Source: Gemmatimonadota bacterium
Lineage (GTDB): Bacteria; Gemmatimonadota; Gemmatimonadetes; Gemmatimonadales; GWC2-71-9
Direction: 5' to 3'
DNA: 64,000 nt
Assembly (NCBI GenBank): GCA_039586365.1
Contig: JBDHKN010000034.1
Location: forward strand, 1-64,000
Shown here: positions 26,455-44,340 of the stretch, in pieces
How positions within the stretch are numbered: the stretch's first letter is position 1
Layout: every line of letters starts with the position of its first letter
Made by a program: the position numbers and the translations under genes
Notes under the pieces: model-generated
Database searches by the model: none
What the model saw: only the letters and a program-made list of their open reading frames with translations
What the model was told of the DNA's origin: nothing

Positions 26455-26889
26455 ATGGCCGACAATACGGTTGACCGACTCTTGGTTTTTCGGGTGGCTG
26501 AGCAGAACTATGCGGCTGTTGCTTCGGTTGTCCGTGAGATTCTCCCAGCTCAAAACGCTACGCGAATACCAGGTGCCACGGATTCCGTCAAGGGCTTGAT
26601 CAACGTGCGCGGCCGCCTGATCACCTTGGTCGATGGACGCAAGGCTCTCAGCCACCCACCTGACGGGGGTGATGGGCCAGTCGTTATCTTGGATGTGGGA
26701 GAGATAGCGGTTGGATTCGCGGTCGACACAGTCCTCGACTTTTGCTCCGTTTCCGCCGGTGATCTCACTGAGCGAGGGGAACTGCCCGGTATCGATCCTC
26801 GTCTGGTCCGAGCGGTGGGTCGCCAAGCCGATATATCTTTCGTGCTCCTCGACGTCGAGGCGTTACTGTCACCAATAATGGTTGCCTAG
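26455..26889 (+). CDS. cheW: CheW coupling protein
   Basis: VREI, TRIPGA, GLINVRG, GFAVD. Confidence 0.88.
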   Translation: MADNTVDRLLVFRVAEQNYAAVASVVREILPAQNATRIPGATDSVKGLINVRGRLITLVDGRKALSHPPDGGDGPVVILDVGEIAVGFAVDTVLDFCSVSAGDLTERGELPGIDPRLVRAVGRQADISFVLLDVEALLSPIMVA

Positions 26890-26901
26890 AGGGGGGAACG
26901 C

Positions 26902-27264
26902 GTGAGTCACTCAGTCCTCGTTTGCGACGACGCGATCTTCATGAGAACGATGATCAGCGACATCCTGTCTCAAGCGGGATACGAAGTTGTCGGAGAAGCT
27001 GAGACCGGGCTCCAAGCTGTTGCGAAGTACAAGGAGCTGAAGCCCGATCTCGTGACCATGGACATCGTGATGCCCGACATGGGTGGGATTGATGCGGTGC
27101 GCGAGATCGTTGCTCACGATCCCGATGCCTGTATTCTGATGTGTAGCGCCATGGGTCAACAGGCACTGGTTGTGGAGGCGATTCAGGCTGGTGCCAAGGA
27201 CTTCGTGGTCAAACCGTTTCAACCCTCTCGGGTCCTTGAGGCGGTGCAGCGGGTTCTCGGATAG
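26902..27264 (+). CDS. cheY: CheY response regulator (Bacillus/DifD-like)
   Basis: DDAIFMR, MDIVMP, CSAMGQQ, VKPF; single receiver domain. Confidence 0.93.
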   Translation: MSHSVLVCDDAIFMRTMISDILSQAGYEVVGEAETGLQAVAKYKELKPDLVTMDIVMPDMGGIDAVREIVAHDPDACILMCSAMGQQALVVEAIQAGAKDFVVKPFQPSRVLEAVQRVLG

Positions 27265-27266
27265 GC

Positions 27267-29126
27267 ATGGACCTGTCGCAATATGCGGAGTTATTCCTTG
27301 CCGAGAGTCGGGAACACCTAGGCACCATCAATCAACAGCTCCTTGAGTGGGAGCGCGTCCCGGAATCCGGCGAACCCGTCGGTGGCATATTCCGGGCGGT
27401 CCACACTATCAAAGGCATGGCAGCCACCATGGGCTATGCCGACGTCACCGATCTCGCTCACCGGATGGAGAACCTCCTCGACATCCTCCGCAGCGGTGAA
27501 CACGAGGCCACCGACCAGGTATTCGAGCTCCTGTTTCAGGCTGCGGATGCCCTCGACAAAGTAGTTGAGTCGTCGGTCTCAGGCAGGGAGTTGGATGCGG
27601 ACACGAGCGATGTGCTCGCGCGGCTCGACGCCACATGCCAGGCGTTGGTGCCGACGGCGAAACCCAGGCCGCCACCTGTCCCACGATCAGTGGATCCGCC
27701 ACAAGCCGCCGGAAAGTGGGTGCGCGTGGTAATCGATCCCAGCGCCACCCTCAAAGGTGCGCGGGCAGCAGTCGTTCTGAGGCGCCTGGAGCAGATTGGC
27801 CAGGTCAATACAGTGCAGCCACCGGCCACCGTTTTTGAAACTGAGGATTTCGACGGTGAGTTCGGACTCCGAATCGAAACCTCCGCTGACGATGAAGTCA
27901 TTGAGGAGCAGATCCGCGCGGCGGGAGACATCGCAGAGGTTTACGTCGGTAATGGTGCGGGAGACAGATTGGTCGAGCGGCCGGAGGCGCGGACACGGCA
28001 TATAAGGGTGGACCTCAGGCGCGTGGATGCAATGATGAACTTGGTGGGAGAACTGGTGACCACCAAAGATCGCCTGGCGCAACTCAGCGCCGGTCGGGGT
28101 GACCCGACGCTCGATGATGTCAGCCTCAAGATGTCTCACCTCACTACACAGCTGCAATCGGAGATTCTAGATGCCCGCATGACGCCGGTGTGGCAGGTGT
28201 TCGATCGTTTCCCAAGACTCGTCAGGGATCTATCCAAGCAGCTCGGTAAGGTGATCGAGTTCAAGGTCGAAGGGAAGGAGATAGAGCTCGATCGGGCGAT
28301 CTTGGATGAGATCGCTGATCCCTTGGTTCATCTACTGCGAAACGCGGTCGATCACGGGATTGAACCGGCGGCCGAGCGGGTGGCTGCAGGGAAGCCGCCG
28401 AGCGGCCACATCGTTCTGTCGGCCGTGCGCGAGCGAGCGACCGTCGCGATTCAGGTGAGCGACGATGGGCGGGGAATCGATCGAGCGAAGTTGCTGGCGG
28501 ATGCCAAGCGGACTGGTATGCTCGATGAAGACGTCGATGTGCTCAGCGACGAGTTGTTGTTACGGGTGCTGTCACGGCCTGGCTTCAGCACTGCTGCTGC
28601 AGTGTCAAATGTGTCGGGTCGTGGGGTCGGGATCGATGCCGTGGCCAGCAGTCTGCGAACTCTGGGTGGCGGACTCGAGGTGCTCAGTGTGCCGGGACAG
28701 GGGACGGTGTTCAGCTTGCGGCTACCCATAACACTGGCTATTGTGCGCGCGCTCACGGCTGAAGTTGGGGAGGAACGCTACCTTCTTCCCGTGACGCACG
28801 TTGCCGAGACAGTCGATCTGAGTGAAGAGACGACCACCAGCTTGGAGGGTGAAGATGCGATGCTCTTCAGGGGGGAGATGATCCCGCTGCTGGATCTTCG
28901 CAAGGTAGTGCAGCTGCCGGGAGAGGGGCATGGTCGACGACCGGTTGTGGTACTCCAAATTGGCGAGCGGAGGTCCGGTTTGGTGGTCGATGCTCTCACC
29001 GGTCAGCAGGAGATCGTGGTCAAGACCTTCGATGCACCGCGCGGCACATTACCCATCTTCAGTGGGGCGACAGTCTTGGGTGATGGATCGCCGGCCCTCA
29101 TTCTGGACACCGGCGGACTAGTGTAG
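27267..29126 (+). CDS. cheA: Chemotaxis histidine kinase CheA
   Basis: Hpt FRAVHTIKG, P2-like region, HLLRNAVDHG, SGRGVG, C-terminal CheW-like domain. Confidence 0.96.
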   Translation: MDLSQYAELFLAESREHLGTINQQLLEWERVPESGEPVGGIFRAVHTIKGMAATMGYADVTDLAHRMENLLDILRSGEHEATDQVFELLFQAADALDKVVESSVSGRELDADTSDVLARLDATCQALVPTAKPRPPPVPRSVDPPQAAGKWVRVVIDPSATLKGARAAVVLRRLEQIGQVNTVQPPATVFETEDFDGEFGLRIETSADDEVIEEQIRAAGDIAEVYVGNGAGDRLVERPEARTRHIRVDLRRVDAMMNLVGELVTTKDRLAQLSAGRGDPTLDDVSLKMSHLTTQLQSEILDARMTPVWQVFDRFPRLVRDLSKQLGKVIEFKVEGKEIELDRAILDEIADPLVHLLRNAVDHGIEPAAERVAAGKPPSGHIVLSAVRERATVAIQVSDDGRGIDRAKLLADAKRTGMLDEDVDVLSDELLLRVLSRPGFSTAAAVSNVSGRGVGIDAVASSLRTLGGGLEVLSVPGQGTVFSLRLPITLAIVRALTAEVGEERYLLPVTHVAETVDLSEETTTSLEGEDAMLFRGEMIPLLDLRKVVQLPGEGHGRRPVVVLQIGERRSGLVVDALTGQQEIVVKTFDAPRGTLPIFSGATVLGDGSPALILDTGGLV

Positions 29127-29136
29127 GAGAGACCGA

Positions 29137-29760
29137 ATGGAAGACTTGCGTCATCTCGAGTCGCTGCAACTCGATGCATTAAAGGAAGTGGCCAACATAG
29201 GGGCGGGTCATGCCGCCACAGCGCTGTCGCAGCTTACCGACCGTCGCATCATGATTGACGTGCCTGAGATCATGGTAACGGATCTGGACGGCCTCGCTGA
29301 CCTGTTGGTGGCCACTGACAGGGTCGTTGCAGCGGTGCTAATGCACATGCTCGGGGATCTCACCGGGCGCACCCTCCTCATGATCCCGGAGGAGAACGCG
29401 AAGCTCCTGTGCGATCTCCTGCTCAAGCGGGATCCAGGAACAACACAGTCATTCGACGAACTGGAGCGATCCGGCCTGAAAGAGGCGGGCAACATCCTTG
29501 GCGGGGCCTACATGAATGCCCTGTCCGACTTCATGGGAATGATGTTGCTGCCGTCGGTCCCCAGCCTAGCCATAGACCTCGCGTCAGCAGTCGTGACCAC
29601 AGCACATCTGAGCTTTGGGCGTGATCGCGACTACGTGTTCTGCGTCGAGACCGATTTCCACTTCGAGGAAGCTGACCGAAAGCTCAAGGGCCACTTCTTG
29701 TTGTTGCCCGACCTCGCCTCACTGAAGGAGATCCTCAAGGCCATCAGGTTGATGGGATAG
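29137..29760 (+). CDS. cheC: CheC phosphatase
   Basis: Two ExxN motifs: LKEVANIGAGHAATALS and LKEAGNIL. Confidence 0.93.
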   Translation: MEDLRHLESLQLDALKEVANIGAGHAATALSQLTDRRIMIDVPEIMVTDLDGLADLLVATDRVVAAVLMHMLGDLTGRTLLMIPEENAKLLCDLLLKRDPGTTQSFDELERSGLKEAGNILGGAYMNALSDFMGMMLLPSVPSLAIDLASAVVTTAHLSFGRDRDYVFCVETDFHFEEADRKLKGHFLLLPDLASLKEILKAIRLMG

Positions 29761-29764
29761 GGAG

Positions 29765-32437
29765 ATGTCATTAACCGAGAGAGATCATGATATTCTCCGG
29801 TCGCTAGCACGTTGCATCGATCCGTCCGATGCAGGTGCTCACAACAACCTCGGTGTACTCTACTACATGAAGGACCTGACGGCGGAAGCGGTGGAGCAGT
29901 TCGCTCGAGCGTTGGAGCTGGATCCCAGGATGCAGGTGGCCGAGCGCAACCTCGAGTTGGCTTACCGACGCTCAGGCCACTACAACGAGCAGGTGCGGGA
30001 ACTACGGAGGCAACTTCGGTCGGACCCGGAGAACCGTGATGCTCGTTGGGAACTGGGACGCGCTTACGCATCGCTGGCCCAATACGATGCTGCTGCGAGT
30101 GAGTTCCAGACGATTCTGTCTCGTGACCCCACCGACGTCGCTGCGATCGTGCAACTGGCGTTGGCCGAGAAGAAACTGGGGCAGTTGGAAACGGCGTCGG
30201 AATGGCTGGAGCGGGCGGCGGATCTTGATCCAGCGAGCAGTGTGGTGCGGTTCTATCTCGGTGAGGTGATGTATAACCGGGGGCTCAACGCAGAGGCGCT
30301 CGAGGCTCTGGAGCAAGCCGTAAAAGTCAGTCCCGATTACGCCGATGCCCATTACCTGTTGGCCTTTGTGCTGGGCGATATGGGGCGGCATGACGAGGCG
30401 CGCAAAGCGACCAAGCGGGCGATACAACTCAACCCTACCTATGGAAGGGCTCAGACGAACCTGTCAATTGAGCGGGTGACCGGTGAGAGTGTGGGCGCTA
30501 CTTCAGAGACACCGCAATCCGCGGGCGCCGACACCCACCAGGGCACTCTCGCTCACTACAATCTCGGCCGTGCCTTCCGACGGCAGGGTTACTACCAGGA
30601 GGCGCTGCACGAGTATCAATTGGCTTTGGACCGTGGCGAGGACCACTTCTTGGTTGAGCACGGCGTGGCTGAGGTCCACTTGCTGCGACGGGACTATGCC
30701 GGTGCCATTGAATTGTATGAAGTGCTGGTTGAGGCGTCTCCTGACTCCGCCAAACTGTGGAATGAACGTGGCGTCGTGCTGCATCAACTGGGCAGGTTCG
30801 AGGACGCAGTCGCATCTTATCGTCGCGCTGTCGAACTCACTCCGGCCTATACACTAGCCCACAACAACCTGGGGATAGCGCTGGCTCAGCAGGGGAGCCA
30901 CGACGACGCGTTGGCTGCCCTCTCTCAGGCTGCCGGCAGTGATCCCAAGCTGCCGGTTGCGCGACTCAATCTTGGTCTCCTGTTGCTCAAGCTCGGTAGG
31001 TTGGAGCTGGCGTTGGCGACGTTTCGGAAGCTGCTGGAGCAACATCCCGACACAGCTGGGGCGTGGAATGGGATAGGTCTCGTACTCAACGAACTGGGAC
31101 GACCTGAGGATGCCAGAAACGCCTTCGGTCGAGCTGTCGAAGCCGACTCGAATTCAGCTGAGGCGCACTACAATCTGAGCTTTGCTCTCTCGAAACTCGG
31201 TGACTATGACGGTGCTCTGCGGACTGTGACGCGTGCTCAGACGCTGGATCCTTACTACGTTCCTCAAAAGTTCAGACTGTCTATCGACCTGCAGTATGAG
31301 GATCCCGATCTATCTGTCGTACCAGAAATATCGGCCGACGTGATGGCCGAGACGACCAGCGCAATCAAGTTTGATCAGGGCCTGATTGACAATCTGTTCG
31401 CGGAACTCGACAGTGCGGCAAGACAGGAAATACCTGTCTCGACGTCCGATCCGCTGACGTTGGCACGGGATTATCTGGACAAGGGTCTGCTGGACTTGGC
31501 TGCTGCTGAAACGGACCGCGCGGCAAACCGGGGAGCGGATCCGGTAGATATGCAGATCCTGTCGGGACACATTTACGCGCGTCAAGGCCTGCACGGCGAG
31601 GCTTTGGAGCGCTACCGAGGGGCGAAGAGTGCGGACCCTGATAGTGCGGTTGCGCGGTTGGGCGAGATTCGTCAGCTGGTCGCACTCGGTAGAGGAGCCG
31701 AGGCAGTCGCCGACGCCGCTGCCCTGGCAAGTGAGCACCCCGACAACGTTGACGTACTGGTGGCACTGGCCGAAACACAACTCGCCGCTGGCGATCCCGC
31801 CAATGCGCTCGAGTACCTCAAGGAGGCCCGCGGACGAGCCCCGCAGCGAGCTGACATACTCAAGCTGGAAGGCGATATCGCTGTGGACATGGGCGATCTG
31901 GAGACTGCACAGCAAGCCTACGAGGGAGCCCTGGACCTGGAACCACGATTCGCGCAGGTCCGGCTGGACCTGGGGAAGCTGCACGAGGCCAGGAACGACC
32001 TGGTCGCCGCCGAGCGGTCCTACAGAGCGGCACTGGAGACTCTGCCTACCCTTTCTGAAGCCGCAATCGCACTGGCTCAGGTGTACCGGCGTGCGGGCCG
32101 CTCGCGGCTGGCCGTGAACCTACTGATCGAAGTGCTCCAGAATGATCCATCGGATCTGGAGACGCTGATCGGCCTGGGGCAGTCTCTGCTGGATGATGGC
32201 CGGGTAGAGCGGGCGCTTGAGGCGTTCGGGCGCGTACTGGCATACCAGAGCAACCACGCTGGTGCCCATTTCTATCTGGGTATGGCACTGGGCCGACAAC
32301 GCTGCTACACCGAGGCTATCGCGAGATGGCAGTCCGTGATTGCTCTGGAGCCGAACGGCCCATTTGCGCATGAGGCACGCAAACACATTCGCACAGCAAA
32401 CGACCTGCAGCACGTCTTCCCGACCACGGTGGCATAG
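29765..32437 (+). CDS. Large multi-TPR protein (890 aa)
   Basis: Many TPR repeats (AHNNLG, AHYNLG, AWNGIG); no signal peptide. Confidence 0.9.
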   Translation: MSLTERDHDILRSLARCIDPSDAGAHNNLGVLYYMKDLTAEAVEQFARALELDPRMQVAERNLELAYRRSGHYNEQVRELRRQLRSDPENRDARWELGRAYASLAQYDAAASEFQTILSRDPTDVAAIVQLALAEKKLGQLETASEWLERAADLDPASSVVRFYLGEVMYNRGLNAEALEALEQAVKVSPDYADAHYLLAFVLGDMGRHDEARKATKRAIQLNPTYGRAQTNLSIERVTGESVGATSETPQSAGADTHQGTLAHYNLGRAFRRQGYYQEALHEYQLALDRGEDHFLVEHGVAEVHLLRRDYAGAIELYEVLVEASPDSAKLWNERGVVLHQLGRFEDAVASYRRAVELTPAYTLAHNNLGIALAQQGSHDDALAALSQAAGSDPKLPVARLNLGLLLLKLGRLELALATFRKLLEQHPDTAGAWNGIGLVLNELGRPEDARNAFGRAVEADSNSAEAHYNLSFALSKLGDYDGALRTVTRAQTLDPYYVPQKFRLSIDLQYEDPDLSVVPEISADVMAETTSAIKFDQGLIDNLFAELDSAARQEIPVSTSDPLTLARDYLDKGLLDLAAAETDRAANRGADPVDMQILSGHIYARQGLHGEALERYRGAKSADPDSAVARLGEIRQLVALGRGAEAVADAAALASEHPDNVDVLVALAETQLAAGDPANALEYLKEARGRAPQRADILKLEGDIAVDMGDLETAQQAYEGALDLEPRFAQVRLDLGKLHEARNDLVAAERSYRAALETLPTLSEAAIALAQVYRRAGRSRLAVNLLIEVLQNDPSDLETLIGLGQSLLDDGRVERALEAFGRVLAYQSNHAGAHFYLGMALGRQRCYTEAIARWQSVIALEPNGPFAHEARKHIRTANDLQHVFPTTVA

Positions 32438-32439
32438 CT

Positions 32440-33594
32440 ATGGCGATCGAGGGCCCACTCAGAGAACTGGGCATTCACGACGTCTTTCAGTTACTCGATT
32501 TGAGTCGGAAGACCGGCAAGCTGACCGTGACGTCCAGACTGCGGCAAAACGGTGGCAGCGTGTTTTTCGAGCGAGGATCGGTCGTCTACGCTGAGATCGA
32601 AAGCAACCCGCATCTGCTGGGACGGCTGTTGGTGCAGTCGGGCAAGATCAACGAGGCTGATTTGAACAGAGCCCGCGATATGCAGCTGGAAGGAGACGAG
32701 CGGCGTTTGGGTGAAATCTTGGTGGACATCGGGGCGTTGACGGAGAAGGACCTAGAGAGACAGATGAGGTCCCAGATCGAAGAGGTTGTTTTTGAGCTCG
32801 TCGGCTGGCAGGAGGGCTACTTCTCCTTTGTTGAGGGTGAGCTGGCCGGCCTGGGTGCGGAAGCCAAGGTGCGGATCTCGACGGAGTCACTCTTGATGGA
32901 GGGCGCGCGCCGGATCGACGAGTGGTCGCGGATCGAGCGGAAGATCCCGCACCTGGGCGTCGTGCCGAGGTTCGCAGCGCGTAACCCGGAGCAGCCGGAA
33001 GGCTACCTCGATCTGCTGCCCTTTGAGTGGCAAGTCCTTGCGGCCGTCGACCATGAGCGGGACATCCGTGCGGTGGCTGTGAGTTTGGGCAGGTCCGAGT
33101 TCGAGGTGGCCAAGGCGGTGTTTGGTCTTGAGAGTGCCGGCCTTCTGGAGCTGGAGGAGCAGCCTGGGACTGCTGCTGTGGGGGGAGGGGCAGAGGAAGT
33201 GCGGGATGCCCTCCGGCGCGCAGAGGCTGCCATGGATGCTGGGGATCTGGCACAGTCCCGACGTTGCGCGGAGCTGGCCCGGACGGGGGCACCCCACGAT
33301 CCACTGGTCCACCTTATACTGGGTAAACTGGATCTGTCGGAACATCGTGCCGAGGCAGCTGAACAACACCTGCGCCGAGCGTTGCGGATCGATCCGATGC
33401 TCGTGGCCGCGCATCGACTGCTGGGCAACACGTTGGCGTTGCAGGGACGTTATTCCGAAGCGATCGAATGGTGGCAGCGGTGGATGACTCTCGGTGAGCG
33501 CACCGAGAAGGATGCCGCCGATGTTGAGCAAGTTGAAGAAGCGCTCAAGGCCGTAGAGCGTCTTGACACCATACTCGGAGGTGCACGTGGCTGA
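32440..33594 (+). CDS. DUF4388 (PATAN-like) + MshEN-like + TPR protein
   Basis: G.L.E....DVFQLL...RKTG.L; tandem (R/L)LG..LV..G motifs; LLMEGARRIDEW; C-terminal TPRs. Confidence 0.82.
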   Translation: MAIEGPLRELGIHDVFQLLDLSRKTGKLTVTSRLRQNGGSVFFERGSVVYAEIESNPHLLGRLLVQSGKINEADLNRARDMQLEGDERRLGEILVDIGALTEKDLERQMRSQIEEVVFELVGWQEGYFSFVEGELAGLGAEAKVRISTESLLMEGARRIDEWSRIERKIPHLGVVPRFAARNPEQPEGYLDLLPFEWQVLAAVDHERDIRAVAVSLGRSEFEVAKAVFGLESAGLLELEEQPGTAAVGGGAEEVRDALRRAEAAMDAGDLAQSRRCAELARTGAPHDPLVHLILGKLDLSEHRAEAAEQHLRRALRIDPMLVAAHRLLGNTLALQGRYSEAIEWWQRWMTLGERTEKDAADVEQVEEALKAVERLDTILGGARG

Positions 33595-34381
33595 TGATAT
33601 CCGGACGTTGAGCTCCGAGCTGGCTCGGGATCCTGACAGCCTGGTGTTTCTCGAGTTGGGTGAGGTGCTGAGGTCAAGGGGGCAGCTATACCTCGCAGCC
33701 AAAGTCGCCGTGACAGGTTTGGAGCGCCATCCACGACTGGCCGATGCCCACGACCTTTACGCTCGGATCCTAGCTGACATGGGACATCCTGAGCAGGCGC
33801 AGGAGGAGTGGTCACTCGCGCTTGGTATCGACCCAAGACACTGCGGGGCTCACAAAGGACTGGGTTTCCTGGCCTACCGGTGGGGCGACCTCGACAAAGC
33901 ACTAGAGCATCTGGAGTGGGCGCTCGCCACGGATCCGTTGGATTCGAGCGTGGTAGAGGCGCTCAGGATGGTCCGACGCACTGCCGAGGAATCAGCGGCT
34001 ACGGTTTCTGGAGCCGAGCTTCCGCCGGTCTTCGCGGGATTGGAGGGGGCAGAGCACGGCCTCTTGTTGTTGGACACCAGGGGACGCGTCTTGGCCGGAG
34101 GGATGAAGAGCGTGACTGGTGCCGACGTGTCAAACGACGTGGCAGCCTACGTAGCGGGAGGCGCTCAGGAGGCTGAGCGCACCTCGCGGATACTCGAGCT
34201 GGGGGATTGGCAGTGGATGGTGATAGAAGGATCCGCGGGAAACCTCCATATCAGCCGTCCCGAGACCGAGGCAGCGCTGTTGGTAGCTCGTGACCGCAGC
34301 GTTCCGTCCGGCAGGCTATCGATCTTGGCCGACCGGGCTACCAGAGTTGCCAAAGCGTGGATCGAGGCACAGGAGCCGTGA
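33587..34381 (+). CDS. TPR + Roadblock/LC7-like fusion protein
   Basis: N-terminal TPRs; C-terminal GLLLLDTRGRVLAG...LGDWQWMVIEG roadblock pattern; GGAGG before GTG 33587. Confidence 0.7.
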   Translation: MADDIRTLSSELARDPDSLVFLELGEVLRSRGQLYLAAKVAVTGLERHPRLADAHDLYARILADMGHPEQAQEEWSLALGIDPRHCGAHKGLGFLAYRWGDLDKALEHLEWALATDPLDSSVVEALRMVRRTAEESAATVSGAELPPVFAGLEGAEHGLLLLDTRGRVLAGGMKSVTGADVSNDVAAYVAGGAQEAERTSRILELGDWQWMVIEGSAGNLHISRPETEAALLVARDRSVPSGRLSILADRATRVAKAWIEAQEP

Positions 34382-34728
34382 CCGAGCGATTGCGGCAGTC
34401 ACTGGACAAGATCACGCGGGTTCGCGGTGTGCGGGGAGCGCTCTTGGTGACCGGGGACGATGGTCTGATCGTGGCAGACGCCGTAATGGACAGTGTGCGT
34501 GGTGACGCGGTAGCGGCTCTCGGGGCAAACTTGGCCACGCGCATGGCGAAGACGTGCGAATGCTCCGGAGTTGGCAGCCTGCAGTTTGTCCATCTCCAGT
34601 CGGTCCAGGGGACCCTCTTGGTCATGCCTTTGGCCGAGGAAGTGGTCCTGGTGGTCATCGGCGACAAGGACATCAACGTCGGCTTGGTCAGGCTGGAGAT
34701 GCAAGGCATGTCGGAGGCGGTGCCGTGA
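34378..34728 (+). CDS. Roadblock/LC7 domain protein
   Basis: GVRGALLVTGDDGLIV, AVAALGA, NVGLVRLEM. Confidence 0.85.
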   Translation: MTERLRQSLDKITRVRGVRGALLVTGDDGLIVADAVMDSVRGDAVAALGANLATRMAKTCECSGVGSLQFVHLQSVQGTLLVMPLAEEVVLVVIGDKDINVGLVRLEMQGMSEAVP

Positions 34729-35195: not shown

Positions 35196-35198
35196 GTT

Positions 35199-35798: not shown

Positions 35799-37753
35799 CG
35801 ACCGAGCTCAACCCCGGAATGACCTTCGAGAGCTTTGCGGTAGGGCCAGGTAATCAGTTAGCGGTGACTGCGGCTCGAGCTGTGGCGGAACGGCTCGACG
35901 GAGCTTACAGCCCACTCTACATCCATGGGGGAGGAGGGCTCGGCAAGACACACCTACTCATAGCGATCGGACATGTGGCGGCCGAGGCGTTTCCCCCCCG
36001 GGTGGTGGAGTACTTCACGCCGAGTCGCCTAGCCGAGGCCTTCAATGCGGCGGCTTCAGCGGGCCAGAGTGAAACGTTCCGCAATCTGCTGGCCGACGTC
36101 GACGTATTGTTGATCGACGATGCGCATCTTTTCGAGCGAAGGCAGGGCGCAAACACTGAGCTCCAGAGATTGACGCAGGACATCTTGGTTGAGGGGAGGA
36201 ACCTCGTTCTTGCTGGCCATGTTCCACCCGGCGAAATCGACGGCCTGCGCAGGGAACTCGTAACGGCCTTGTCACAGGGACTAGTTGTTGAGATCGAACC
36301 GCTTGATTACGAAACGCGGTTGGCCATTTTGCAGCGCCGGGCGGAGAGCCGCGCTTCAGGCCTGGATCAGACTGTGCTGGCAGCGGTCGCCGAGTTCAAT
36401 ATCACCACTGCCAGAGAGTTGATCGCATTGCTCAATCGGCTGATCGCACTGGATGCGGTAAGTGAGACTCGGTTGATGCCTGATGCAGCAAGAGCGCTGT
36501 TAGAGGGAGAAGCACTTGCACTGGACGGGCGGCGTCCGGTACCATCGGTGGGTGGGGCAGAGACCCAGCGAGACGAGTTCGCGGACTTCCTGTCCGAAGT
36601 GAGTGTCGCGGTCCAACAGCAGATCGAGGGGTGGGAGACGGACGTTCGGGATGCGATTGAGCGGTGGGGCCGTGAAGGTTTCGACACGAAGAGGCTGGAA
36701 GGGCTTCTCACGCAGAGTAATCCGATGCCGGTTGAGGCAACCATAGTGGAGTTCGAGCGAGACGTCCAGCAACTCCGAACCCTCCGTGAATCTGTTGCGG
36801 CAACCGATCCCACCCAGGCGGATGATCCGGTATTCTGTGATCCCGACCGGGTATCGGAGGCACACATATTGGCCGAGAGTATCGTGCCGGCTGTGGAGCT
36901 ACCTCCCGGTCCCTCGTCTGCCTGGACCTTCGACAGTTACATCGAGACAGAAGGCAACAGAGCGGCCAACCAGGCCGTGCACGAGGTAGTGGATTCGCCA
37001 GTATCGGCGCACAATCCGCTCGTAATCGTGGGAGCGACCGGAGTGGGGAAGACACACCTCCTGCATGCACTGGGGAGCGGTCTGAGCGAGCATCTCGCCA
37101 TGCCGGTAGCCTGTCTTTCCGGGCAGGAGTTCCACACCCTGGCCAGGAGCGCGGTCGAAGAGAATGCGCTTGAGGCCTTCGGGTCGCTGTTTGATCGGGC
37201 GGGTGCGCTGCTGATTGACGATATACACATGCTGGTGGGGCATGAGCGATCTCAAGAAGAACTGTACAGGATTGTCTCAGTGCTCATAGGGACATCCCGG
37301 CAAGTCGCATTCACCGTCAGTTCTGACCCTGCCGAGATCGACGGTCTCACCGCACAGCTGAGGCAGTGCATTGACGGTGGCAGGCAGGTGGTGTTGACGT
37401 CACCCGACCGTGAATTGCGACGCCGCTTGGTGCAGCGGGTGCTGCGGGATCGGGTGGGAGAAGCCGATCCTGAACTGCTGGATTACTTGGCGGATCGACC
37501 GGCTGAATCAGTGCGGGTGGTGACGGGCCTAGCCCAGCGGATAGTCGACTCCGCGGACGGCCAAGGCTTGCCGCCTAGTGCGGCTCTCGCCCGTCAGCTG
37601 ATCGAAGGGGCCCTCCCCAAGGTGGAGCGAGTGTCTCGAGGGATGCGAACCAGTGGGGTCATGGTTTCGCTGGCGAGCGGCGTCAAGAGTCGCGAGAAGA
37701 TGATCTGGAACTGGCCCGATCCGGGAGAGCGGCTGATAGAGGAACTTTCGTAG
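35795..37753 (+). CDS. Tandem DnaA/Hda-type AAA+ domain protein without DNA-binding domain
   Basis: Two copies of TF..F/Y...N..A, PL.I.G..G.GKTHLL, LLIDD; no DnaA domain I or IV. Confidence 0.85.
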   Translation: MTTELNPGMTFESFAVGPGNQLAVTAARAVAERLDGAYSPLYIHGGGGLGKTHLLIAIGHVAAEAFPPRVVEYFTPSRLAEAFNAAASAGQSETFRNLLADVDVLLIDDAHLFERRQGANTELQRLTQDILVEGRNLVLAGHVPPGEIDGLRRELVTALSQGLVVEIEPLDYETRLAILQRRAESRASGLDQTVLAAVAEFNITTARELIALLNRLIALDAVSETRLMPDAARALLEGEALALDGRRPVPSVGGAETQRDEFADFLSEVSVAVQQQIEGWETDVRDAIERWGREGFDTKRLEGLLTQSNPMPVEATIVEFERDVQQLRTLRESVAATDPTQADDPVFCDPDRVSEAHILAESIVPAVELPPGPSSAWTFDSYIETEGNRAANQAVHEVVDSPVSAHNPLVIVGATGVGKTHLLHALGSGLSEHLAMPVACLSGQEFHTLARSAVEENALEAFGSLFDRAGALLIDDIHMLVGHERSQEELYRIVSVLIGTSRQVAFTVSSDPAEIDGLTAQLRQCIDGGRQVVLTSPDRELRRRLVQRVLRDRVGEADPELLDYLADRPAESVRVVTGLAQRIVDSADGQGLPPSAALARQLIEGALPKVERVSRGMRTSGVMVSLASGVKSREKMIWNWPDPGERLIEELS

Positions 37754-39372
37754 TGGCTATCAAAGGCAGTCTCAAGGAAGCGTCCCTCCCAGACGTGCTC
37801 CAACTGCTATCGCTCGGGCGCAAGACGGGCTGTCTGTCCGTTTCAGACCGTTCAAGCCTGGGGTACGTCTTCTTCGATGCAGGCCGAATCATATACGCCA
37901 CCGTTGTCAACAGGCGCGACAGGCTCGGGGACATACTCCACAAGAGCGGCAGGATCACGCAGAAACAGCTGGACGAAGCCGTACGACTGCAGGACGCGGG
38001 TCGCGACAAGAAGTTGGGAGAGATCCTGGTTGAAACCGGGGCTATCTCGCAATCTGAGTTGGAGCATTGCGTGCGGCTGCAGATAGAGGAAGCTGTCTTC
38101 TTTCTGTTCACATGGCGGCGCGGGAGCTTCACTTTTGAGAGCGACGTCCGACCGCACCGTCAGGATTACCTGGTCTCCATCGATCCTGAGGCTCTCCTCT
38201 TGGAGGGAGCACGGCGGATTGACGAGTGGAGCCTCATCGAGAAGAAAGTCCCCTCTTTTGACCTGGTGTTCCAAACTGACGAGGAGCGCCTGATGTCCTC
38301 CGACGCTTCCCTGTCGGAAGCGCAGCAGCGCATTGCACCCCTACTGAACGGCAGCCGCGACCTATTCGCAGTGATCGAAGAGACCGGGCTCGTAGAGTTC
38401 GAGGTCGGCAAGGCGCTTTACGGACTTCTGACCGCTGGCTTCGTTCACCAGGTAGGCCGCAAAGCAGCGGAGCGGCGGCGCGAGGTCTCTGGGGTCCGTA
38501 TCGATGAGCACAGGAACCTCGGCATCGCGTTCTATCGCACCGGGATGCTAGATGAGTCGTTGCGTGAGTTCCGTCGAGTGGTTGAGCTGGGGCCGTCGGA
38601 CGGGGGTGCCTACTTTTACCTCGGCCTCATCTACTTCAAGCAGGCGCAGTGGCAGCAGGCGATCGAAGCGTTCAAGCAGGCAGTGGAGAAAGGTGGATCA
38701 CAGCCGTCAATACTCTATAACTTGGCGCTCAGCTACGAGAAAGCCGGGATGCTCGCCGAAGCGGAGGAGGCCTATGCCGACTCGGCGACTCGAGCACGTC
38801 GGGATTCACGCGTCCTGACAGGTTGGGGGCTGGTGGCCTTGCACCGCAGTGACTTCGAAGTGGCAGAGGGCCGGCTCGACCGGGCACGTGAGGTGACCGG
38901 TGGCGAGGGCATGAGTGCCATCTGGTACTGGGCTCGCTCACTGGCAGCTGGGGCTCAGGAGGACTACGATTCGGCGGAACGCATCTTGAGAGAAGGTGTA
39001 GAGCTGTTTCCCGAACATGCTGTGCTGCGAAACAACCTGGGAGCCCTACTTGAATTGCTGGGCCGAGTCGACGAAGCCGAGGAGCTTTTGAAGACGGCGC
39101 TGGCAGACGAACCGAGCGTCCCGCAACTGTCGAAGAATCTCGGTGATCTCCACTACCGGAGCGGCCGCTACGACGAAGCGTGGGATGCCTATCAACGCGC
39201 AGTCAAGCTCCAGCCCGAGTTGGGCGACGATGTGTATTTCAAGCTGGGCAACATCGCGTACAAGCGGCAAGATCGCGAGCTCGCAACCACCTGCTGGCAC
39301 AAGGCTCTTGAGCTGAACCCGATTCACGAGTTGGCTCGCACGAACCTAGAGACTGTGAGCGCCCTTAAGTGA
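37753..39372 (+). CDS. DUF4388 (PATAN-like) + MshEN-like + TPR protein
   Basis: Paralogue of 32440-33594 (MAIKGSLKE, RKTG, LLLEGARRIDEW); RLGDIL and KLGEIL motifs; multiple TPRs. Confidence 0.85.
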   Translation: MAIKGSLKEASLPDVLQLLSLGRKTGCLSVSDRSSLGYVFFDAGRIIYATVVNRRDRLGDILHKSGRITQKQLDEAVRLQDAGRDKKLGEILVETGAISQSELEHCVRLQIEEAVFFLFTWRRGSFTFESDVRPHRQDYLVSIDPEALLLEGARRIDEWSLIEKKVPSFDLVFQTDEERLMSSDASLSEAQQRIAPLLNGSRDLFAVIEETGLVEFEVGKALYGLLTAGFVHQVGRKAAERRREVSGVRIDEHRNLGIAFYRTGMLDESLREFRRVVELGPSDGGAYFYLGLIYFKQAQWQQAIEAFKQAVEKGGSQPSILYNLALSYEKAGMLAEAEEAYADSATRARRDSRVLTGWGLVALHRSDFEVAEGRLDRAREVTGGEGMSAIWYWARSLAAGAQEDYDSAERILREGVELFPEHAVLRNNLGALLELLGRVDEAEELLKTALADEPSVPQLSKNLGDLHYRSGRYDEAWDAYQRAVKLQPELGDDVYFKLGNIAYKRQDRELATTCWHKALELNPIHELARTNLETVSALK

Positions 39373-40181
39373 ACAAGAGGCGGCGCGATCCCGACCTCGC
39401 CGCTCTGGTTGAAAAGATTGCTCGGGAACGCCACTTCGGCTTCGACGCATACAAAGAGGGTTGTCTCAGGCGACGTGTGGCAGTTCGCATGAGAGTAAGA
39501 GGCGTGACGACCTATGAGGAGTACGCTGAACTACTGGATCGCGATACGAACGAATACGAGAGTCTCCTGGACACCCTCACTATCAATGTCACCAAGTTCT
39601 ACCGTAACAGAGAGACCTGGGAAGCGTTGGCTCGGAACCAGCTTCGGGCCCTGCTACGATCGCGGGGAGGCCAGGTCCGGTGCTGGTCGGCAGGGTGTGC
39701 GTCCGGTGAGGAACCGTTCACACTGGCGATATTACTGTTCGAGACGGCAGCACATGAGCGACTCACAGCGACGGCGATTCAAATCGACGCTACCGATTTC
39801 GACTCAAACAGCCTTAACCGTGCTCGCCGTGGCGAGTACAGCAAGGCCGCGTTCGACGAAATGCCAGCGGACTTGGCTCGGCGGTACTTCAGTGATGGTA
39901 GCGTTAGGGTGGTCGACCAACGAATCAGCGGAACCGTACGGTTCCGTCGCCACGACATCACCAGAGAGCCACCACCGGAGCCGCCATACGACTTGATTAT
40001 GTGCCGGAATGTGCTGATCTATTTTGATCGCGCTACTCAGGATCGCTTAGTATCCCAGTTCATAGGGGCTCTGCGGCCCGGAGGCTACTTGGTATTGGGA
40101 AGGGCAGAGACGATACTTGGTGACCTCCGTGAGTGCGTGAAATTGGAGGATCCGCGTGAGCGCATCTATCGGCGGCCATGA
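39369..40181 (+). CDS. cheR: Protein-glutamate methyltransferase CheR
   Basis: TINVTKFYR, WSAGCASGEEP, CRNVLIYFD, GGYLVLG. Confidence 0.93.
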   Translation: MNKRRRDPDLAALVEKIARERHFGFDAYKEGCLRRRVAVRMRVRGVTTYEEYAELLDRDTNEYESLLDTLTINVTKFYRNRETWEALARNQLRALLRSRGGQVRCWSAGCASGEEPFTLAILLFETAAHERLTATAIQIDATDFDSNSLNRARRGEYSKAAFDEMPADLARRYFSDGSVRVVDQRISGTVRFRRHDITREPPPEPPYDLIMCRNVLIYFDRATQDRLVSQFIGALRPGGYLVLGRAETILGDLRECVKLEDPRERIYRRP

Positions 40182-40672
40182 GTGAGGGTCCGGCAGAGAC
40201 CCTGGTGCGTCTCGGTGCCCTTGAGGTGACTGATCAAGCAGACACCCTCATGGCGTTGGGGTTGGGCAGCTGTGTGGCCGTGATCCTTCATGATCCCAAG
40301 GCGAAGGTAGGCGGTCTCGCCCATATCCTCCTGCCATCTCAGTCGTTGTCGCGTGACAGTACGAATTTCGCACGGTCCGCCGATACGGCTGTGCCGCGTC
40401 TCCTTCAATTGATGCACGAGCGCGGTGCGACCCGCAGTCAGGTTGTGGCGCGACTAGTTGGCGGAGCGAGCATGTTTGCCGATTTGCTGGCTGCCGGCAC
40501 GGTCCATATTGGTGAGCGAAACGTCAATGCATGTAGGCTGAGCCTACGTCGGGCGGGGGTGCCCATAGTAGGAGAAGCGGTCGGTGGCCAGAAGAGCCGC
40601 TCAGTCTGGCTCGACGTGGGACGGGGTACAGTCACCGTACGCACGGTGGGTGGTGAGCCGACAACTATCTAG
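40178..40672 (+). CDS. cheD: Chemoreceptor glutamine deamidase CheD
   Basis: LGLGSCVAV, GGLAHILLP, GGASMF, IGERN. Confidence 0.92.
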   Translation: MSEGPAETLVRLGALEVTDQADTLMALGLGSCVAVILHDPKAKVGGLAHILLPSQSLSRDSTNFARSADTAVPRLLQLMHERGATRSQVVARLVGGASMFADLLAAGTVHIGERNVNACRLSLRRAGVPIVGEAVGGQKSRSVWLDVGRGTVTVRTVGGEPTTI

Positions 40673-41732
40673 TTCACAAGCCACTGTCCTCGTAGTGGAC
40701 GACAGCGCCTTCATGCGACGCATATTGGCGGATGCCATCTCCGAGTCCGATAGCTTCAGGCTGGCTGGTACGGCCCGGGACGGTGTCGACGCCATTGAGA
40801 AGGTGAACAGGCTCGAGCCAGATCTCGTAACGATGGACATCGAAATGCCGAGGCTCGGTGGGTTGGATACGATAGAGAGAATCATGCAGGAGAGTCCTCG
40901 ACCCATTGTTGTAGTAAGTGCTCATGCAGGGTTGGGTACGGCCGCGGCCATCAAAGCTCTTGAGGTGGGAGCGGTTGAGGTCGTTGCCAAACCGAGCGGG
41001 CGAGATCCCGCAGGTCTCGCCGTGATGGTTTCGTCCATGATGGCCGCTCTCACCGCGGCCGCAATGGCAGTCGTAGAGCGGACACCGCCAATATCCGTCG
41101 ACCGAGAGATCTTGTATGCCCAGGCGCATTCTGGTCGCAAGCCGCGCCATGCACGAGCTGCGGTGGCTATTGCGGCCAGCACAGGAGGTCCCCGTGCGCT
41201 CACGCAGCTGGTGCCCGCGATACCCTCGGGTCTGGGTCTTGGTACCCTCGTGGTCCAACACATGCCCGCAGGGTTTACCAAGAGCTTGGCGCAACGGCTG
41301 CATGAGTTGAGCTGCTTGACCGTCGTGGAAGCTGAGGATGGTATGGAGGTTCTGGCCGACACGGTGTACGTAGCACCCGGCGACCATCATATGCGGGTGG
41401 CCGGCCCAGACGGCCTGCTGATACGGTTGGATCGCGACACTCCCGTGTGGGGTGTGCGACCGGCGGCCGATCCACTGTTCTACTCAGTGGCGGCGCACTT
41501 TGGCCCGCGGGCGGTGGGTGTGGTGCTGACAGGCATGGGGCGAGACGGTGCTGCCGGTCTCAAGGCGATAAGAGATGCTGGGGGGAGGGGAGTCGTGCAA
41601 GACCAGGCCACCTCGGTGGTGTTCGGTATGCCAAAGGCCGCTATTGATGCAGGTGGTGCTAACGCGATTGAGCCTTTGTCGGGACTCGCGTCCGCGGTCA
41701 CTAGGTTTGTTACAAGCGAGGGAGGTCATTGA
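40653..41732 (+). CDS. cheB: Chemotaxis methylesterase CheB
   Basis: Receiver domain (VDDSAFMR, MDIEMP) plus ASTGGP, QHMP, GMGRDG; start approximate. Confidence 0.93.
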   Translation: MSRQLSSSQATVLVVDDSAFMRRILADAISESDSFRLAGTARDGVDAIEKVNRLEPDLVTMDIEMPRLGGLDTIERIMQESPRPIVVVSAHAGLGTAAAIKALEVGAVEVVAKPSGRDPAGLAVMVSSMMAALTAAAMAVVERTPPISVDREILYAQAHSGRKPRHARAAVAIAASTGGPRALTQLVPAIPSGLGLGTLVVQHMPAGFTKSLAQRLHELSCLTVVEAEDGMEVLADTVYVAPGDHHMRVAGPDGLLIRLDRDTPVWGVRPAADPLFYSVAAHFGPRAVGVVLTGMGRDGAAGLKAIRDAGGRGVVQDQATSVVFGMPKAAIDAGGANAIEPLSGLASAVTRFVTSEGGH

Positions 41733-42157
41733 AGGGTTATCTCCGCGTTCGCGCAGAGGGCACACACTACGGCCTACGGGTGGATCAGGTGCTCGAAGTA
41801 GTAGACGGGTTCGAGCTGCGTCGGGTACCGGCCACACACGAATCAGTGCGCGGTGTCACTCCGTTGCGAGGACGGCTAGTACCGCTGATTCAACTAGCCG
41901 CGCTCCTGGGTGATCGGCCACCACCGCCCACTCTTGGTGGAACCGCTGTGCTGGTGCGGTGTTCCGGATTGGTGGTGGCCTTCGAGGTGGACGATGCGGA
42001 GGAGCTCGTTGCGGAGAATCCCCTCCCTGTCCCGGACGTCTGGCGGCTTCCCTGGGCGTCAGGTGTGGGGCGCTATCGCGGGGACCTCATACCAATCATC
42101 GATCTCGAGATTCTGGCAGGGCGATTGATGCCTGGACGCGAGGGTACTGGGGAATGA
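41729..42157 (+). CDS. cheW: CheW-like protein
   Basis: YGLRVDQVLEV, RGVTPLRGRLVPLI, AFEVD. Confidence 0.8.
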   Translation: MKGYLRVRAEGTHYGLRVDQVLEVVDGFELRRVPATHESVRGVTPLRGRLVPLIQLAALLGDRPPPPTLGGTAVLVRCSGLVVAFEVDDAEELVAENPLPVPDVWRLPWASGVGRYRGDLIPIIDLEILAGRLMPGREGTGE

Positions 42158-42630
42158 GCGTGGGTGACGAGATCCAGTTGGTGACCTTTCGCCTCGGCGG
42201 GCATGAGCTTGCGTTCAACGTTTTCGAGGTAGAGCGAGTGTTGCGGTACGAGGGACCCACTCCACTGCCGGATTCCCCAGATTATCTCCTGGGGACTCTC
42301 CGCTACGGTAGCGAGGTGGTGCCGGTAGTCGATCTGCGAAAGCGGCTCCGAGTGCCCGCTACCGTGGAGGATGTTACCAGGATCATTGTGGTTCAGTGGG
42401 AACATGGAAGACTCGGAGTAGTGGTTGATGCGGTGCTCGAAGTCACCAAAGTGTCCGCCGACGAAATCGTACCACCACCGCAATTCGTGAAGGGACTTGC
42501 GGCTGAGTGCGTTGGGGGTATCGTGTCGGCGGGCGACCGGACAATAGTCGTACTCGCGGTGGCAAGGCTGCTCGCGTCCAACGAGCAGCTGAAATTGGAC
42601 ACTCTGATGGCGGAGATACCCCATGGGTGA
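42154..42630 (+). CDS. cheW: CheW coupling protein
   Basis: QLVTFRLG, VVPVVDLRKRL, GVVVDAV.EV. Confidence 0.88.
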   Translation: MSVGDEIQLVTFRLGGHELAFNVFEVERVLRYEGPTPLPDSPDYLLGTLRYGSEVVPVVDLRKRLRVPATVEDVTRIIVVQWEHGRLGVVVDAVLEVTKVSADEIVPPPQFVKGLAAECVGGIVSAGDRTIVVLAVARLLASNEQLKLDTLMAEIPHG

Positions 42631-43486
42631 ACCGATTGTTGCCCAAATGCGGGCCCTTTACAACGAGATCGTTCAGAACCTAGAGGCGGTGCGGTCCGGT
42701 GGTGATAGAGAGGCGGTCAAGCACGACATCATCGCTCTGTTCAAGACAGTCGATCAGGGCATAACAGACCTCACCGAGCTGAAGGAAGACATTAGGGTCC
42801 TGGTCGAGAAATACAAACAGCTAGCCCAGAGCACGAGCGGAGACCGGGCGCCAGAGTTCACGGGGGCTGTTCCCGCCGTCAGGGTCGACCACATCGGTGC
42901 TTCGACTTTCATCGAGAAGGGGTGGAGCCTCATCTCACTGGGGGATTATCCCGGTGCGCTACTGGCCCTGAACAAGGCGCTGTCGCTGTCACCCGGCGAT
43001 GTGCAGGCTGAGTCGTTGCTCGGCTGGGCACAGATGCTCAACGAAGACTACGATGATGCGCTGGCGACCTTTCAGCAGGTTCTCATGAAAGAGCCGGCCA
43101 ATTCCTTGGCTCGTATCAACGTTGGCTACATCTGCCTGAAGAAGGGCATTTTCGGGGAAGCGATCGAGCACCTTTCCAAGGCCATTAGGTTGGACAATGA
43201 CAAGAAGGCGACGTTGTATGCGCACTTCTACTTGGGCTTGGTGTACCTCGAGCGGGACATGTACGAGGATGCGCAGACGTTCTTTGAGAAGACACTCAGG
43301 CTCGGGCCGAATTTAGTCGAAGCGTACTACGAGCTCGGGCGCGCGCAGTGGTTCGCCGGGGACCGGGAAGGAGCGAAGGGTACCTGGGCCAGCGGATACA
43401 AGACCAACAAGTTCAACTCTTGGGGCAAACGTTGTAAGGAGACCCTCAATTTGGTAGAGCGAGGACAGGAGCCACCACGTTCGTAG
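42623..43486 (+). CDS. Coiled-coil + TPR protein
   Basis: N-terminal helical/coiled-coil segment, then about 5 TPRs. Confidence 0.85.
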   Translation: MGEPIVAQMRALYNEIVQNLEAVRSGGDREAVKHDIIALFKTVDQGITDLTELKEDIRVLVEKYKQLAQSTSGDRAPEFTGAVPAVRVDHIGASTFIEKGWSLISLGDYPGALLALNKALSLSPGDVQAESLLGWAQMLNEDYDDALATFQQVLMKEPANSLARINVGYICLKKGIFGEAIEHLSKAIRLDNDKKATLYAHFYLGLVYLERDMYEDAQTFFEKTLRLGPNLVEAYYELGRAQWFAGDREGAKGTWASGYKTNKFNSWGKRCKETLNLVERGQEPPRS

Positions 43487-44340
43487 CAGCGCTTCTCGTA
43501 GCCCTGCTGTCGCAGGACCCATCACTTGTCAGTGTCGGGCGAGCGAGTGCGGTTTTTTGGCCAGGTGATGAGTCGGGTGCGACGATCCTGGCTGAAATGG
43601 CTGACAAAGCCGGTCCTTGGCCGGGAATACCCAGTGTTTCAGAGCGGCGGGTCCGTCTGATCATCGCTCCAGACGACCAACGGTTTGACTCGCTCACCAG
43701 CAGTCGTCTGCCAGAGTGGGGTGGCGGAGCGGCGTTCCCGGGTTCGAACACGATCGTGCTGAAGCTCACCGGTGACGTGCGCAGGGTGCTGCGGCACGAG
43801 CTGGCCCATCTCGCGCTGCACAGTGTCGTCAAGCGAGTTCCCTTGTGGTTTGATGAGGGGTACGCGGCGTGGGCGTCTGGTGAGTGGGACCGTGTGAGGG
43901 CATTACGGGTAAACTGGGCGCTCCTGACTGGTGCCTCTCCTACCTTGCGGCAAGTCGAAGCAGACTTGAGGGGCAGCGTGGCCGGCGCTGAAACGGCCTA
44001 TGCGCTGGCGATGACCGCGGTGCTGCTATTGGAGCATTTGGGTGGTGACCGCGGGCTAGAGCCGTTGATCGCCAACCTGGCCGACACCCCCGATTTCGAT
44101 CGGGCGCTGCGGATCACCAATCAGATGACTCTGGGACAATTCGAGGAACTGTGGCGTCGCGAGTTGCGCACTCGCTACGGGTGGGTACTGTTTTTCGGAT
44201 CTGTGACAGTGTTCTGGGCCGTGTTGGCGCTTGTGCTCACGAGTTTATGGTGGTGGCGCCGCCAGCGGGACCGGGATCGGCGGGCGGCTCTTGACGAAGG
44301 GTGGGTCGTTCCGCTAGATGAATGGGACGCAAGTGCTTGA
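43477..44340 (+). CDS. Membrane-anchored HExxH zinc peptidase-like protein (clan MA); start uncertain
   Basis: RHELAH + PLWFDEG, C-terminal TM; frame open upstream of ATG 43597 through a signal-like hydrophobic stretch. Confidence 0.7.
   Translation, partial: TFVAALLVALLSQDPSLVSVGRASAVFWPGDESGATILAEMADKAGPWPGIPSVSERRVRLIIAPDDQRFDSLTSSRLPEWGGGAAFPGSNTIVLKLTGDVRRVLRHELAHLALHSVVKRVPLWFDEGYAAWASGEWDRVRALRVNWALLTGASPTLRQVEADLRGSVAGAETAYALAMTAVLLLEHLGGDRGLEPLIANLADTPDFDRALRITNQMTLGQFEELWRRELRTRYGWVLFFGSVTVFWAVLALVLTSLWWWRRQRDRDRRAALDEGWVVPLDEWDASA

Follow-up and report, generated by a model that had tools for sequence, protein, structure and literature searches.

Myxococcus is the only organism in which it is understood how a chemosensory pathway controls a Ras-like polarity switch; its genes for this are dispersed, and connecting the kinase to the GTPase took years. 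There, MglA is described as binding the TPR protein SgmX and thereby driving pili (PMC11580455), and the chemosensory system Frz is assigned to the ACF class (PMC3441718). Group-1 MglA proteins are further reported to lie near PATAN genes (Wuichet and Sogaard-Andersen 2014, PMC4316618), and row 89 of supplement file 3 of that paper gives the neighbourhood of Gemmatimonas aurantiaca GAU_1409 as PATAN>MglA>-PATAN>; in the paper's passages on such genes, neither che genes nor the ATPase nor a function is named for this locus. Here we describe a block of 19 genes from the abundant, little-studied phylum Gemmatimonadota, located at 26455..44340 of a window of 64,000 nt (the whole stretch analysed, forward strand). 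It has the same local order as the GAU_1409 neighbourhood, so that a cultured member of the phylum appears to carry the locus, and it brings the candidate parts together in one place: chemosensory (che) genes, mglA and mglB, a double ATPase derived from DnaA, and a PATAN-TPR protein denoted DUF4388b. We conclude that the block is a real, conserved and undescribed module of mostly known parts. Our preferred reading, to which we assign a probability of about 55%, is that an F1-type CheA-CheY pair, MglA/MglB and the DnaA-derived ATPase converge on DUF4388b within one module and would thereby set the place and time of type IVa pilus assembly. A first, sequence-only reading of this DNA had known of no functional description of such an arrangement. 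Our searches of the full-text literature, which left most subscription journals outside and did not query the pairing of DnaA with MglA, agree with it: they returned no functional description, and the supplementary row cited above lists the PATAN-mglA-PATAN order.

Conservation and natural deletions of the block

Open reading frame calls and Pfam placed all 19 genes on the + strand (26455-44340) in the order given by the sequence-only reading, which had also described them as tightly coupled, with catalytic motifs intact. Both descriptions hold. Every intergenic junction is an overlap or a gap of ≤12 nt, counting first-possible starts (the final junction is measured to the start of the open peptidase frame; the first ATG there comes 110 nt later), and the catalytic residues of CheA, CheB, CheC, CheD and MglA are present and conserved in orthologs. 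The phylum was sampled with 121 genomes, 120 of them at ≥90% completeness together with the genome carrying the window (G000, 86%). We analyzed 20 kb around the best mglA match at 40 loci, which were picked for long contigs and family spread rather than at random, and added 12 further loci that appeared reduced or divergent. cheA, mglA and DUF4388b occurred together in 36/40 mglA-anchored loci and nine core genes in 32/40; the four loci without the trio were L018, L032, L045 and L047. The che and mgl genes are therefore linked in relatives, a point on which the sequence-only reading had staked its case.

Across the class Gemmatimonadetes the block occupies a single locus, between ileS-dksA-lspA-rluD and rsmH-ftsI. 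A DUF4388b ortholog was detected in 86/121 genomes, comprising 54/55 of its own family, 25/28 of the sister family, 5/5 from four small families, 1/11 of another and G000; five weaker matches, all from other classes, covered the TPR part only. A quick tree of DUF4388b (SH-aLRT support only, insert removed from the alignment) follows the family labels and therefore fits vertical descent, and the G+C content (GC) is flat at ~0.60 over the whole window, giving no sign of recent transfer. Alignment of divergent homologs in a metagenome survey confirmed at least 536 loci, of which 80 were fetched; 61 were Gemmatimonadetes-like and 19 divergent (L080-L098; GC 0.31-0.65). Most of these 19 carried mglB and/or mglA, the ATPase, DUF4388b, cheR, cheD, cheB and the coiled-coil TPR gene, in that order, and the mglA-ATPase-DUF4388-cheR-cheD-cheB-TPR junction was kept at 55-66% identity to the divergent query and a GC of 0.31-0.51. 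One Atlas cluster of 526 residues, commonest in WOR-3, resembled DUF4388b. At one divergent locus (L095:13165-18760), genes for two large proteins of secreted type (FG-GAP, FlgD/sorting-tail) are inserted between cheD and cheB.

Natural deletions already separate input from core. The che genes were wholly lost from L047, L068, L070 and the genome behind L069, with the TPR-PATAN-Roadblock-MglA-ATPase core intact, and at L045 they persist in fragments beside an equally intact core; these five che-less versions fall in three separate tree positions. L066 and L067 retain che genes, DUF4388b and the coiled-coil TPR gene, the mgl genes and ATPase being gone, and L018 retains mglA, DUF4388b, cheR and the coiled-coil TPR gene. 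The arrangement is thus not a fixed unit as first proposed, since either the che or the mgl half can be lost. All reduced loci with sufficient contig coverage, whether che-less, mgl-less or minimal, contained DUF4388b. Because it is the only gene kept in all reduced versions, DUF4388b is likely the hub of the module.

DUF4388b and the DnaA-derived double ATPase

The ATPase gene (35795..37753) encodes two DnaA domain III units, as had been proposed; Pfam assigned PF00308 twice and neither domain I nor domain IV of DnaA. The two halves are 33% and 28% identical to the DnaA of G000, and the model (pLDDT 85.7) matched 8bv3 in Foldseek with a TMt of 0.92. The true DnaA is encoded on contig C125 and carries PF11638 and PF08299; against TIGR00362 the block protein scored 334 bits, under the cut-off of 344. 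Both halves have conserved Walker A and B motifs. The box VII arginines, which provide the arginine finger of an active DnaA/Hda-type oligomer, are missing from this copy (A158, C525); orthologs keep them in 41/48 and 44/48 cases, and Arg158 is absent from all 30 closest homologs. Since the arginine fingers are gone in this lineage, its ATPase is predicted to serve as a switch that binds nucleotide, or as a scaffold, and not as a motor. Single-domain and degenerate versions also exist. Four of the seven named relatives come from Gemmatimonadota and are the full-length ones, and the six closest Atlas clusters are commonest in that phylum.

All complete versions of the ATPase, single-domain ones included, end in a common short C-terminal motif (the L034 row terminates in a different frame, and L071 is truncated at its contig end). 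In the block this tail spans residues 626-652 (37670..37750) and has low pLDDT when folded alone. The last TPRs of DUF4388b are missing in 5/5 ATPase-less loci, which belong to two separate tree lineages, and present in 47/47 others. From the conserved tail and this co-loss we therefore predicted that the tail binds the TPRs, and then modelled the complex. The model yielded an ipSAE of 0.88 (0.88, 0.89, 0.81), the best of three controls reaching 0.01; the ipSAE mark is reached by 116/157 solved and 2/215 mismatched pairs, figures that apply only approximately to a model built, like ours, on our own alignments. Model runs agreed in at least 49% of contacts, with a partner pLDDT of at least 53, and placed the tail along a groove formed by DUF4388b residues 285-494 (38605..39234). 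The ATPase tail is accordingly modelled, and predicted by us, to dock in the TPR groove of DUF4388b. One interaction inside the core is thus predicted, the absence of cross-interactions having been named at the outset as a result that would speak against the module. In the literature searched, no counterpart is described for a DnaA-derived double ATPase with such a predicted docking tail, and the predicted docking site offers a direct experimental entry.

DUF4388b itself (37753..39372) consists of a PATAN domain (PF14332, E 5.5e-38) with a tandem MshEN-like insert, a helical subdomain and a TPR superhelix (model pLDDT 88); Foldseek with this model returned generic TPR proteins only. Residues 54-113 matched MshE (5htl, E 6.7e-4) and PilF (6f8l, E 1.1e-6). 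The insert (residues 57-110; 37921..38082) has the tandem 24-residue motifs with Arg, Gly and Gln by which MshEN is defined (PMC5013675), with R57 invariant and both Gln at least 90% conserved, and divergent orthologs pass NF053729. DUF4388b is therefore predicted to bind cyclic di-GMP (c-di-GMP) through this insert. The second PATAN protein, DUF4388a (32440..33594; PF14332, E 6.8e-32), also combines an MshEN-like insert with TPRs; its insert is the weaker one, lacking the first Arg and scoring 36.7 bits with NF053729, just below the cut-off of 38. The MshEN inserts noticed in the sequence-only reading are thus well backed for DUF4388b and less so for DUF4388a. G000 has only these two DUF4388 genes. 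Pfam found no receiver in them, the PATAN domain being joined to TPRs instead of to a receiver as in PatA-type proteins.

Chemosensory proteins, MglA and the remaining genes

F1-class chemosensory systems are characterized by CheC and CheD, a P2-bearing CheA and a Thermotoga-like CheY, and a CheA-receiver fusion is the mark of Frz (ACF class). The CheA of the block (27267..29126; best NCBIfam match CheA_Halo) has Hpt, P2, dimer, HATPase and CheW domains only, and Pfam found no receiver fused to it. CheY (26902..27264) is a Thermotoga-type single receiver (PF00072) whose best PDB match is 1tmy (E 1.9e-50; the source organisms of PDB matches such as 1tmy and 2ch7 are presumed throughout). CheC (29137..29760; PF04509, best NCBIfam match CheC_Thtogales) is a phosphatase, and CheD (40178..40672; PF03975) best matches CheD_Thtga. 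With P2, no receiver, CheC and CheD present, and best library matches to Thermotoga and haloarchaeal models, the che set is by domain content F1-type and Dif-like, not Frz-like, and differs in this from the Frz pathway with which it was first compared. Catalytic residues were counted in 35-51 orthologs, depending on the protein. CheA H46 is conserved in 47/47, CheY D54 and K104 in 48/48, CheC E17, E116 and N119 in 47/47 and N20 in 41/47, CheD C32 and H49 in 35/35, and CheB D85, S199, H226 and D321 in 37/37.

No chemoreceptor gene was found by Pfam within the block, which is therefore not self-contained as had been supposed. Five receptors are encoded elsewhere in G000, where the cheA of the block is the only one found; their sensor regions are dCache, GAF or unrecognised, and the two that were aligned both best matched 2ch7, one of them with a 7-residue insertion in one arm. 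The structure 2ch7 is named as a class 44H receptor (PMC2577667). Receptors were absent in G035, G040, G066, G105 and G108, genomes without the che block or without the CheW domain of CheA; G095 and G110 each keep one receptor, beside another cheA, and of the two receptors left in G089 one adjoins a cheA other than the block's. Because receptors vanish where the che block or the CheW domain of CheA is lost, the gene profiles show that the scattered orphan receptors feed the block's CheA. One of the five receptor genes lies ~5 kb from the true dnaA (L078:834-8605, G000:C125). At L025 and L037, from two families, a CheA without CheW domain is kept with CheY and CheC, cheW/R/D/B and the orphan receptors being lost; on its gene content this CheA-CheY-CheC set is a receptor-free phosphoswitch. 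In G. phototrophica, one CheA and one receptor are reported to rise with calcium (PMC9862903).

CheY contains F13, M14, M17, D20 and I21, all five primary specificity residues listed for DifD (PMC4671073). The same residues occur in 1tmy and therefore mark the F1 type rather than Dif. An EpsW-like second receiver was not found: among 39 receiver domains aligned, that of CheB is alone in having more than one of these five residues in common with CheY. G000 also encodes a 772-aa PilB/GspE-like ATPase with a C-terminal receiver (L058:886-3201, G000:C12), possibly a phosphorylation-controlled pilus or secretion motor; as a CheA substrate it was rejected, having 1/5 specificity residues in common with the block's CheY. 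An acidic short helix in the linker of TPR890, an 890-aa TPR scaffold (29765..32437; in 38/40 loci), was likewise rejected as CheY-binding site because it is retained in the che-less loci L047, L068 and L070. If we had to guess what CheY-P acts on within the block, we would name DUF4388b or the coiled-coil TPR protein (42623..43486), because che-only versions retain no other gene outside the che set. The latter is present in 36/40 loci and kept in che-only, core-only and most divergent versions.

The mglA gene (35199..35798) encodes a group-1-type small GTPase with the P-loop Lys, intrinsic Arg53, catalytic Gln82 and G4 motif; K25 and D144 are conserved in 51/51 orthologs, R53 in 46/51 and Q82 in 49/51. 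A second mglBA pair follows dnaX-recR on contig C97 of G000, a synteny reported for Myxococcus and Bdellovibrio (PMC3983030), and its MglA scored 284.6 bits against the solved MglA 6hjh compared with 247.3 bits for the block copy. Judged by synteny and score, both of which favor the recR-linked copy, the block's mglA is a dedicated paralog and not the ortholog of the Myxococcus polarity module. The recR-linked MglA (L073:8837-10025) has a ~35-residue insertion ahead of the last motif relative to the solved protein. In one genus (L060-L064) identity of the block MglA has fallen to 38-49%, TPR890 is only a third of its usual length and the DUF4388a insert is largely lost, with the ATPase and DUF4388b intact. 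MJ0042-type zinc ribbons occur as a domain of an MglA partner in Myxococcus; in G000, a gene for an MJ0042-type zinc-ribbon protein adjoins a receiver-GGDEF gene (L160:487-2346, G000:C48).

Three Roadblock genes (all PF03259) precede mglA. The TPR-Roadblock fusion (33563..34381; E 1.4e-3) probably starts at GTG 33587, conservation beginning near residue 9; the second (34357..34728; E 5e-11) is MglC-like by fold only; and the mglB-like gene (34725..35195; NF052242 E 3e-8, below cut-off) encodes a conserved C-terminal helix, its longest frame running from 34554 with GTG 34725 as the putative start. L018-L021 keep mglA and have no detectable Roadblock gene in the block. The remaining che genes are cheW (1) (26455..26889; PF01584, E 3.5e-26), whose ATG lies one base past the rluD stop, cheR (39369..40181; PF01739, PF03705), cheB with receiver (40584..41732 as longest frame, the true start probably being later; PF01339, PF00072, NF001965 over cut-off), cheW (2) (41729..42157; PF01584) and cheW (3) (42154..42630; PF01584), for which the longest frame runs from 41959 and ATG 42154 is the likely start. 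The block closes with an HExxH peptidase of the MA family (43597..44340; PF13485), found in 34/40 loci. It was undetected in the 19 divergent loci, so that it is a conserved Gemmatimonadetes neighbor whose membership in the block is doubtful. A 474-aa TPR protein with no other domain (window 44972-46396) follows the block in many relatives, before rsmH-ftsI. A promoter scan found 0 sigma-70-like sites against 4.9 expected, and terminators were at chance level.

Mechanism, rival explanations and known systems

In the mechanism that we propose, orphan chemoreceptors would signal to the block's CheA, which, by analogy with its family, would phosphorylate CheY and CheB, with CheC/CheD and CheR/CheB resetting the signal. 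The ATPase tail is predicted to bind the TPR groove of DUF4388b, the ATPase acting as nucleotide switch or scaffold. MglA-GTP, presumably governed by MglB and the two further Roadblock proteins, would bind one of the four TPR proteins in the way that SgmX is bound in Myxococcus, and the MshEN-like insert is predicted from its motifs to bind c-di-GMP. The PATAN domain may then contact PilB/PilC, as PATAN domains of Synechocystis are reported to bind PilB1 and PilC (10.1101/2021.06.11.447907). A wider view, which we hold only tentatively, is that a DnaA ATPase core was duplicated, lost its DNA-reading domain and became a second nucleotide switch in a c-di-GMP-sensing PATAN-TPR hub with a dedicated MglA and free CheY; such a polarity machine would be an old feature of Gemmatimonadota and of sister candidate lineages, and might link the identity of a pole to the ATP state or the cell cycle.

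As to output, we somewhat favor type IVa pili over flagella. Flagellin and FliM were not found in G000 (86% complete), which has a PilB with MshEN domain, PilM, four PilT-family ATPases over cut-off and ten GGDEF matches. PilM is present in 84/86 DUF4388b carriers, the other two having PilT, and at L096 a PilT over cut-off overlaps mglA ~3 kb after pilN-pilO-secretin. Several findings weigh against the proposed module and its pilus output. Pili are nearly ubiquitous in the phylum, and PilM also occurs in 31/35 genomes without DUF4388b, so co-occurrence does not single out pili; the pilT-mglA adjacency is a single case (L097 is identical to L096); in five flagellin-bearing genomes (G021, G026, G027, G091, G103) no CheA was found other than that of the block; and its CheY strongly resembles 1tmy, a flagellar CheY. 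For the docking, ATPase-less L018 keeps 4/11 conserved interface residues, yet ATPase-less L066/L067 keep 10/11 and ATPase-bearing L029 only 5/11, a mixed pattern for which we rejected groove-residue relaxation as a sign of binding. Because TPR-peptide docking is a common solved geometry, the passing score of the model may partly reflect likeness. Joint loss of the MshEN insert and the ATPase was also rejected as a sign of binding, the four loci being one clade and thus a single event, and L018 having lost the ATPase and kept the insert.

That the che genes are present or former flagellar chemotaxis genes, still steering flagella where these exist, with the mgl core as a separate passenger, would explain the five genomes just named, the likeness to 1tmy and the che-only versions in flagellated G068 and G070. 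We consider it improbable, since 64/86 carriers have no flagellin (present in 22/86), most of them with intact catalytic residues, and in at least 11 flagellated carriers, G068 and G070 included, another cheA lies no more than 80 kb from flagellin on its contig, in four of them no more than 15 kb away; ordinary flagellar chemotaxis, the outcome that the sequence-only reading had itself set against its proposal, is thus not what most carriers have. An equally improbable explanation, two independent systems that share an operon for historical reasons, draws on the repeated loss of each block without the other, but che genes lie on both sides of the core, which divides them in two, DUF4388b still stands between cheC and cheR in che-only versions, and the mglA-to-TPR junction survives in the divergent loci.

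Control of exopolysaccharide, adhesion or biofilm by a Dif-like module, with MglA and c-di-GMP as co-inputs, is unlikely in our view. The CheW-CheY-CheA-CheC set with CheD and CheR matches Dif-like clusters (PMC2577667), CheY has the DifD residues, the two receptors tested align best with the 44H receptor 2ch7, and the genome has ten GGDEF matches; the residues are shared with 1tmy, however, the block has neither a receptor nor an EpsW-like partner, and no polysaccharide genes lie beside the loci scanned. Pole marking for asymmetric division, or coupling of cell cycle and polarity by an ATPase that senses or contacts the replication machinery, is likewise unlikely. Gemmatimonas divides by budding, the ATPase consists of two copies of DnaA domain III, in Gemmatimonadetes the block is found a short way upstream of rsmH-ftsI, and the core is kept where all che genes and receptors are lost. 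Against this, the ATPase lacks domains I/IV, unlike the true DnaA of G000, four genomes from the same order that are 98-100% complete (G039, G081, G085, G087) yielded no DUF4388b, and the divergent loci have other neighbors. A polar contact or secretion function, on the model of MglA and the TPR protein Bd2492 in Bdellovibrio prey invasion, we regard as very improbable: MglA, a TPR partner and a c-di-GMP receptor are described at one pole there (PMC3983030), and L018-L021 keep mglA with no mglB detectable in the block, but the neighbourhoods of the loci scanned showed no secretion or TamAB genes, and the Bdellovibrio-syntenic mglA is the other, recR-linked copy.

Taken together, the block of our preferred reading, a module converging on DUF4388b, likely follows the same control logic as Frz-MglA-SgmX of Myxococcus xanthus. 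With the Frz-MglA/MglB/MglC/RomR-SgmX system it shares a chemosensory input, a group-1 MglA with catalytic Arg and Gln, Roadblock proteins and TPR proteins. It differs in that its CheA has P2 and no receiver and is joined by CheC/CheD, in contrast to ACF-class Frz, that its genes are clustered, that its MglA is paralogous to the recR-linked copy, and that PATAN-MshEN adaptors and a DnaA-derived ATPase are added. With the Dif and Dif-like clusters of M. xanthus and Geobacter and the F1-type che genes of Thermotoga and archaea it has CheW, CheY, CheA, CheC, CheD and CheR in common, together with the Thermotoga and haloarchaeal library matches and possibly 44H-like receptors (two of five aligned); unlike Dif, it contains no 44H receptor with tiny periplasmic loop inside the cluster and no EpsW-like receiver, and embeds a GTPase/ATPase core. 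The cyanobacterial PatA-type PATAN-receiver proteins (PixE, PixG, LsiR) also combine DUF4388/PATAN and a helical insert with chemosensory operons, and binding to PilB1 and PilC has been shown for cyanobacterial members; the DUF4388 proteins of the block have a TPR superhelix instead of a fused receiver, and CheY is encoded separately. An idea that Myxococcus SopA carries DUF4388 proved wrong, the source paper giving SopA no known domain. DnaA domain III and Hda, finally, share with the ATPase the fold, Walker A/B and, in most orthologs, the sensor and box VII arginines, whereas two tandem domains, the absence of domains I/IV, a helical linker and a conserved tail predicted to dock set it apart from them and from the true DnaA encoded elsewhere in the genome.

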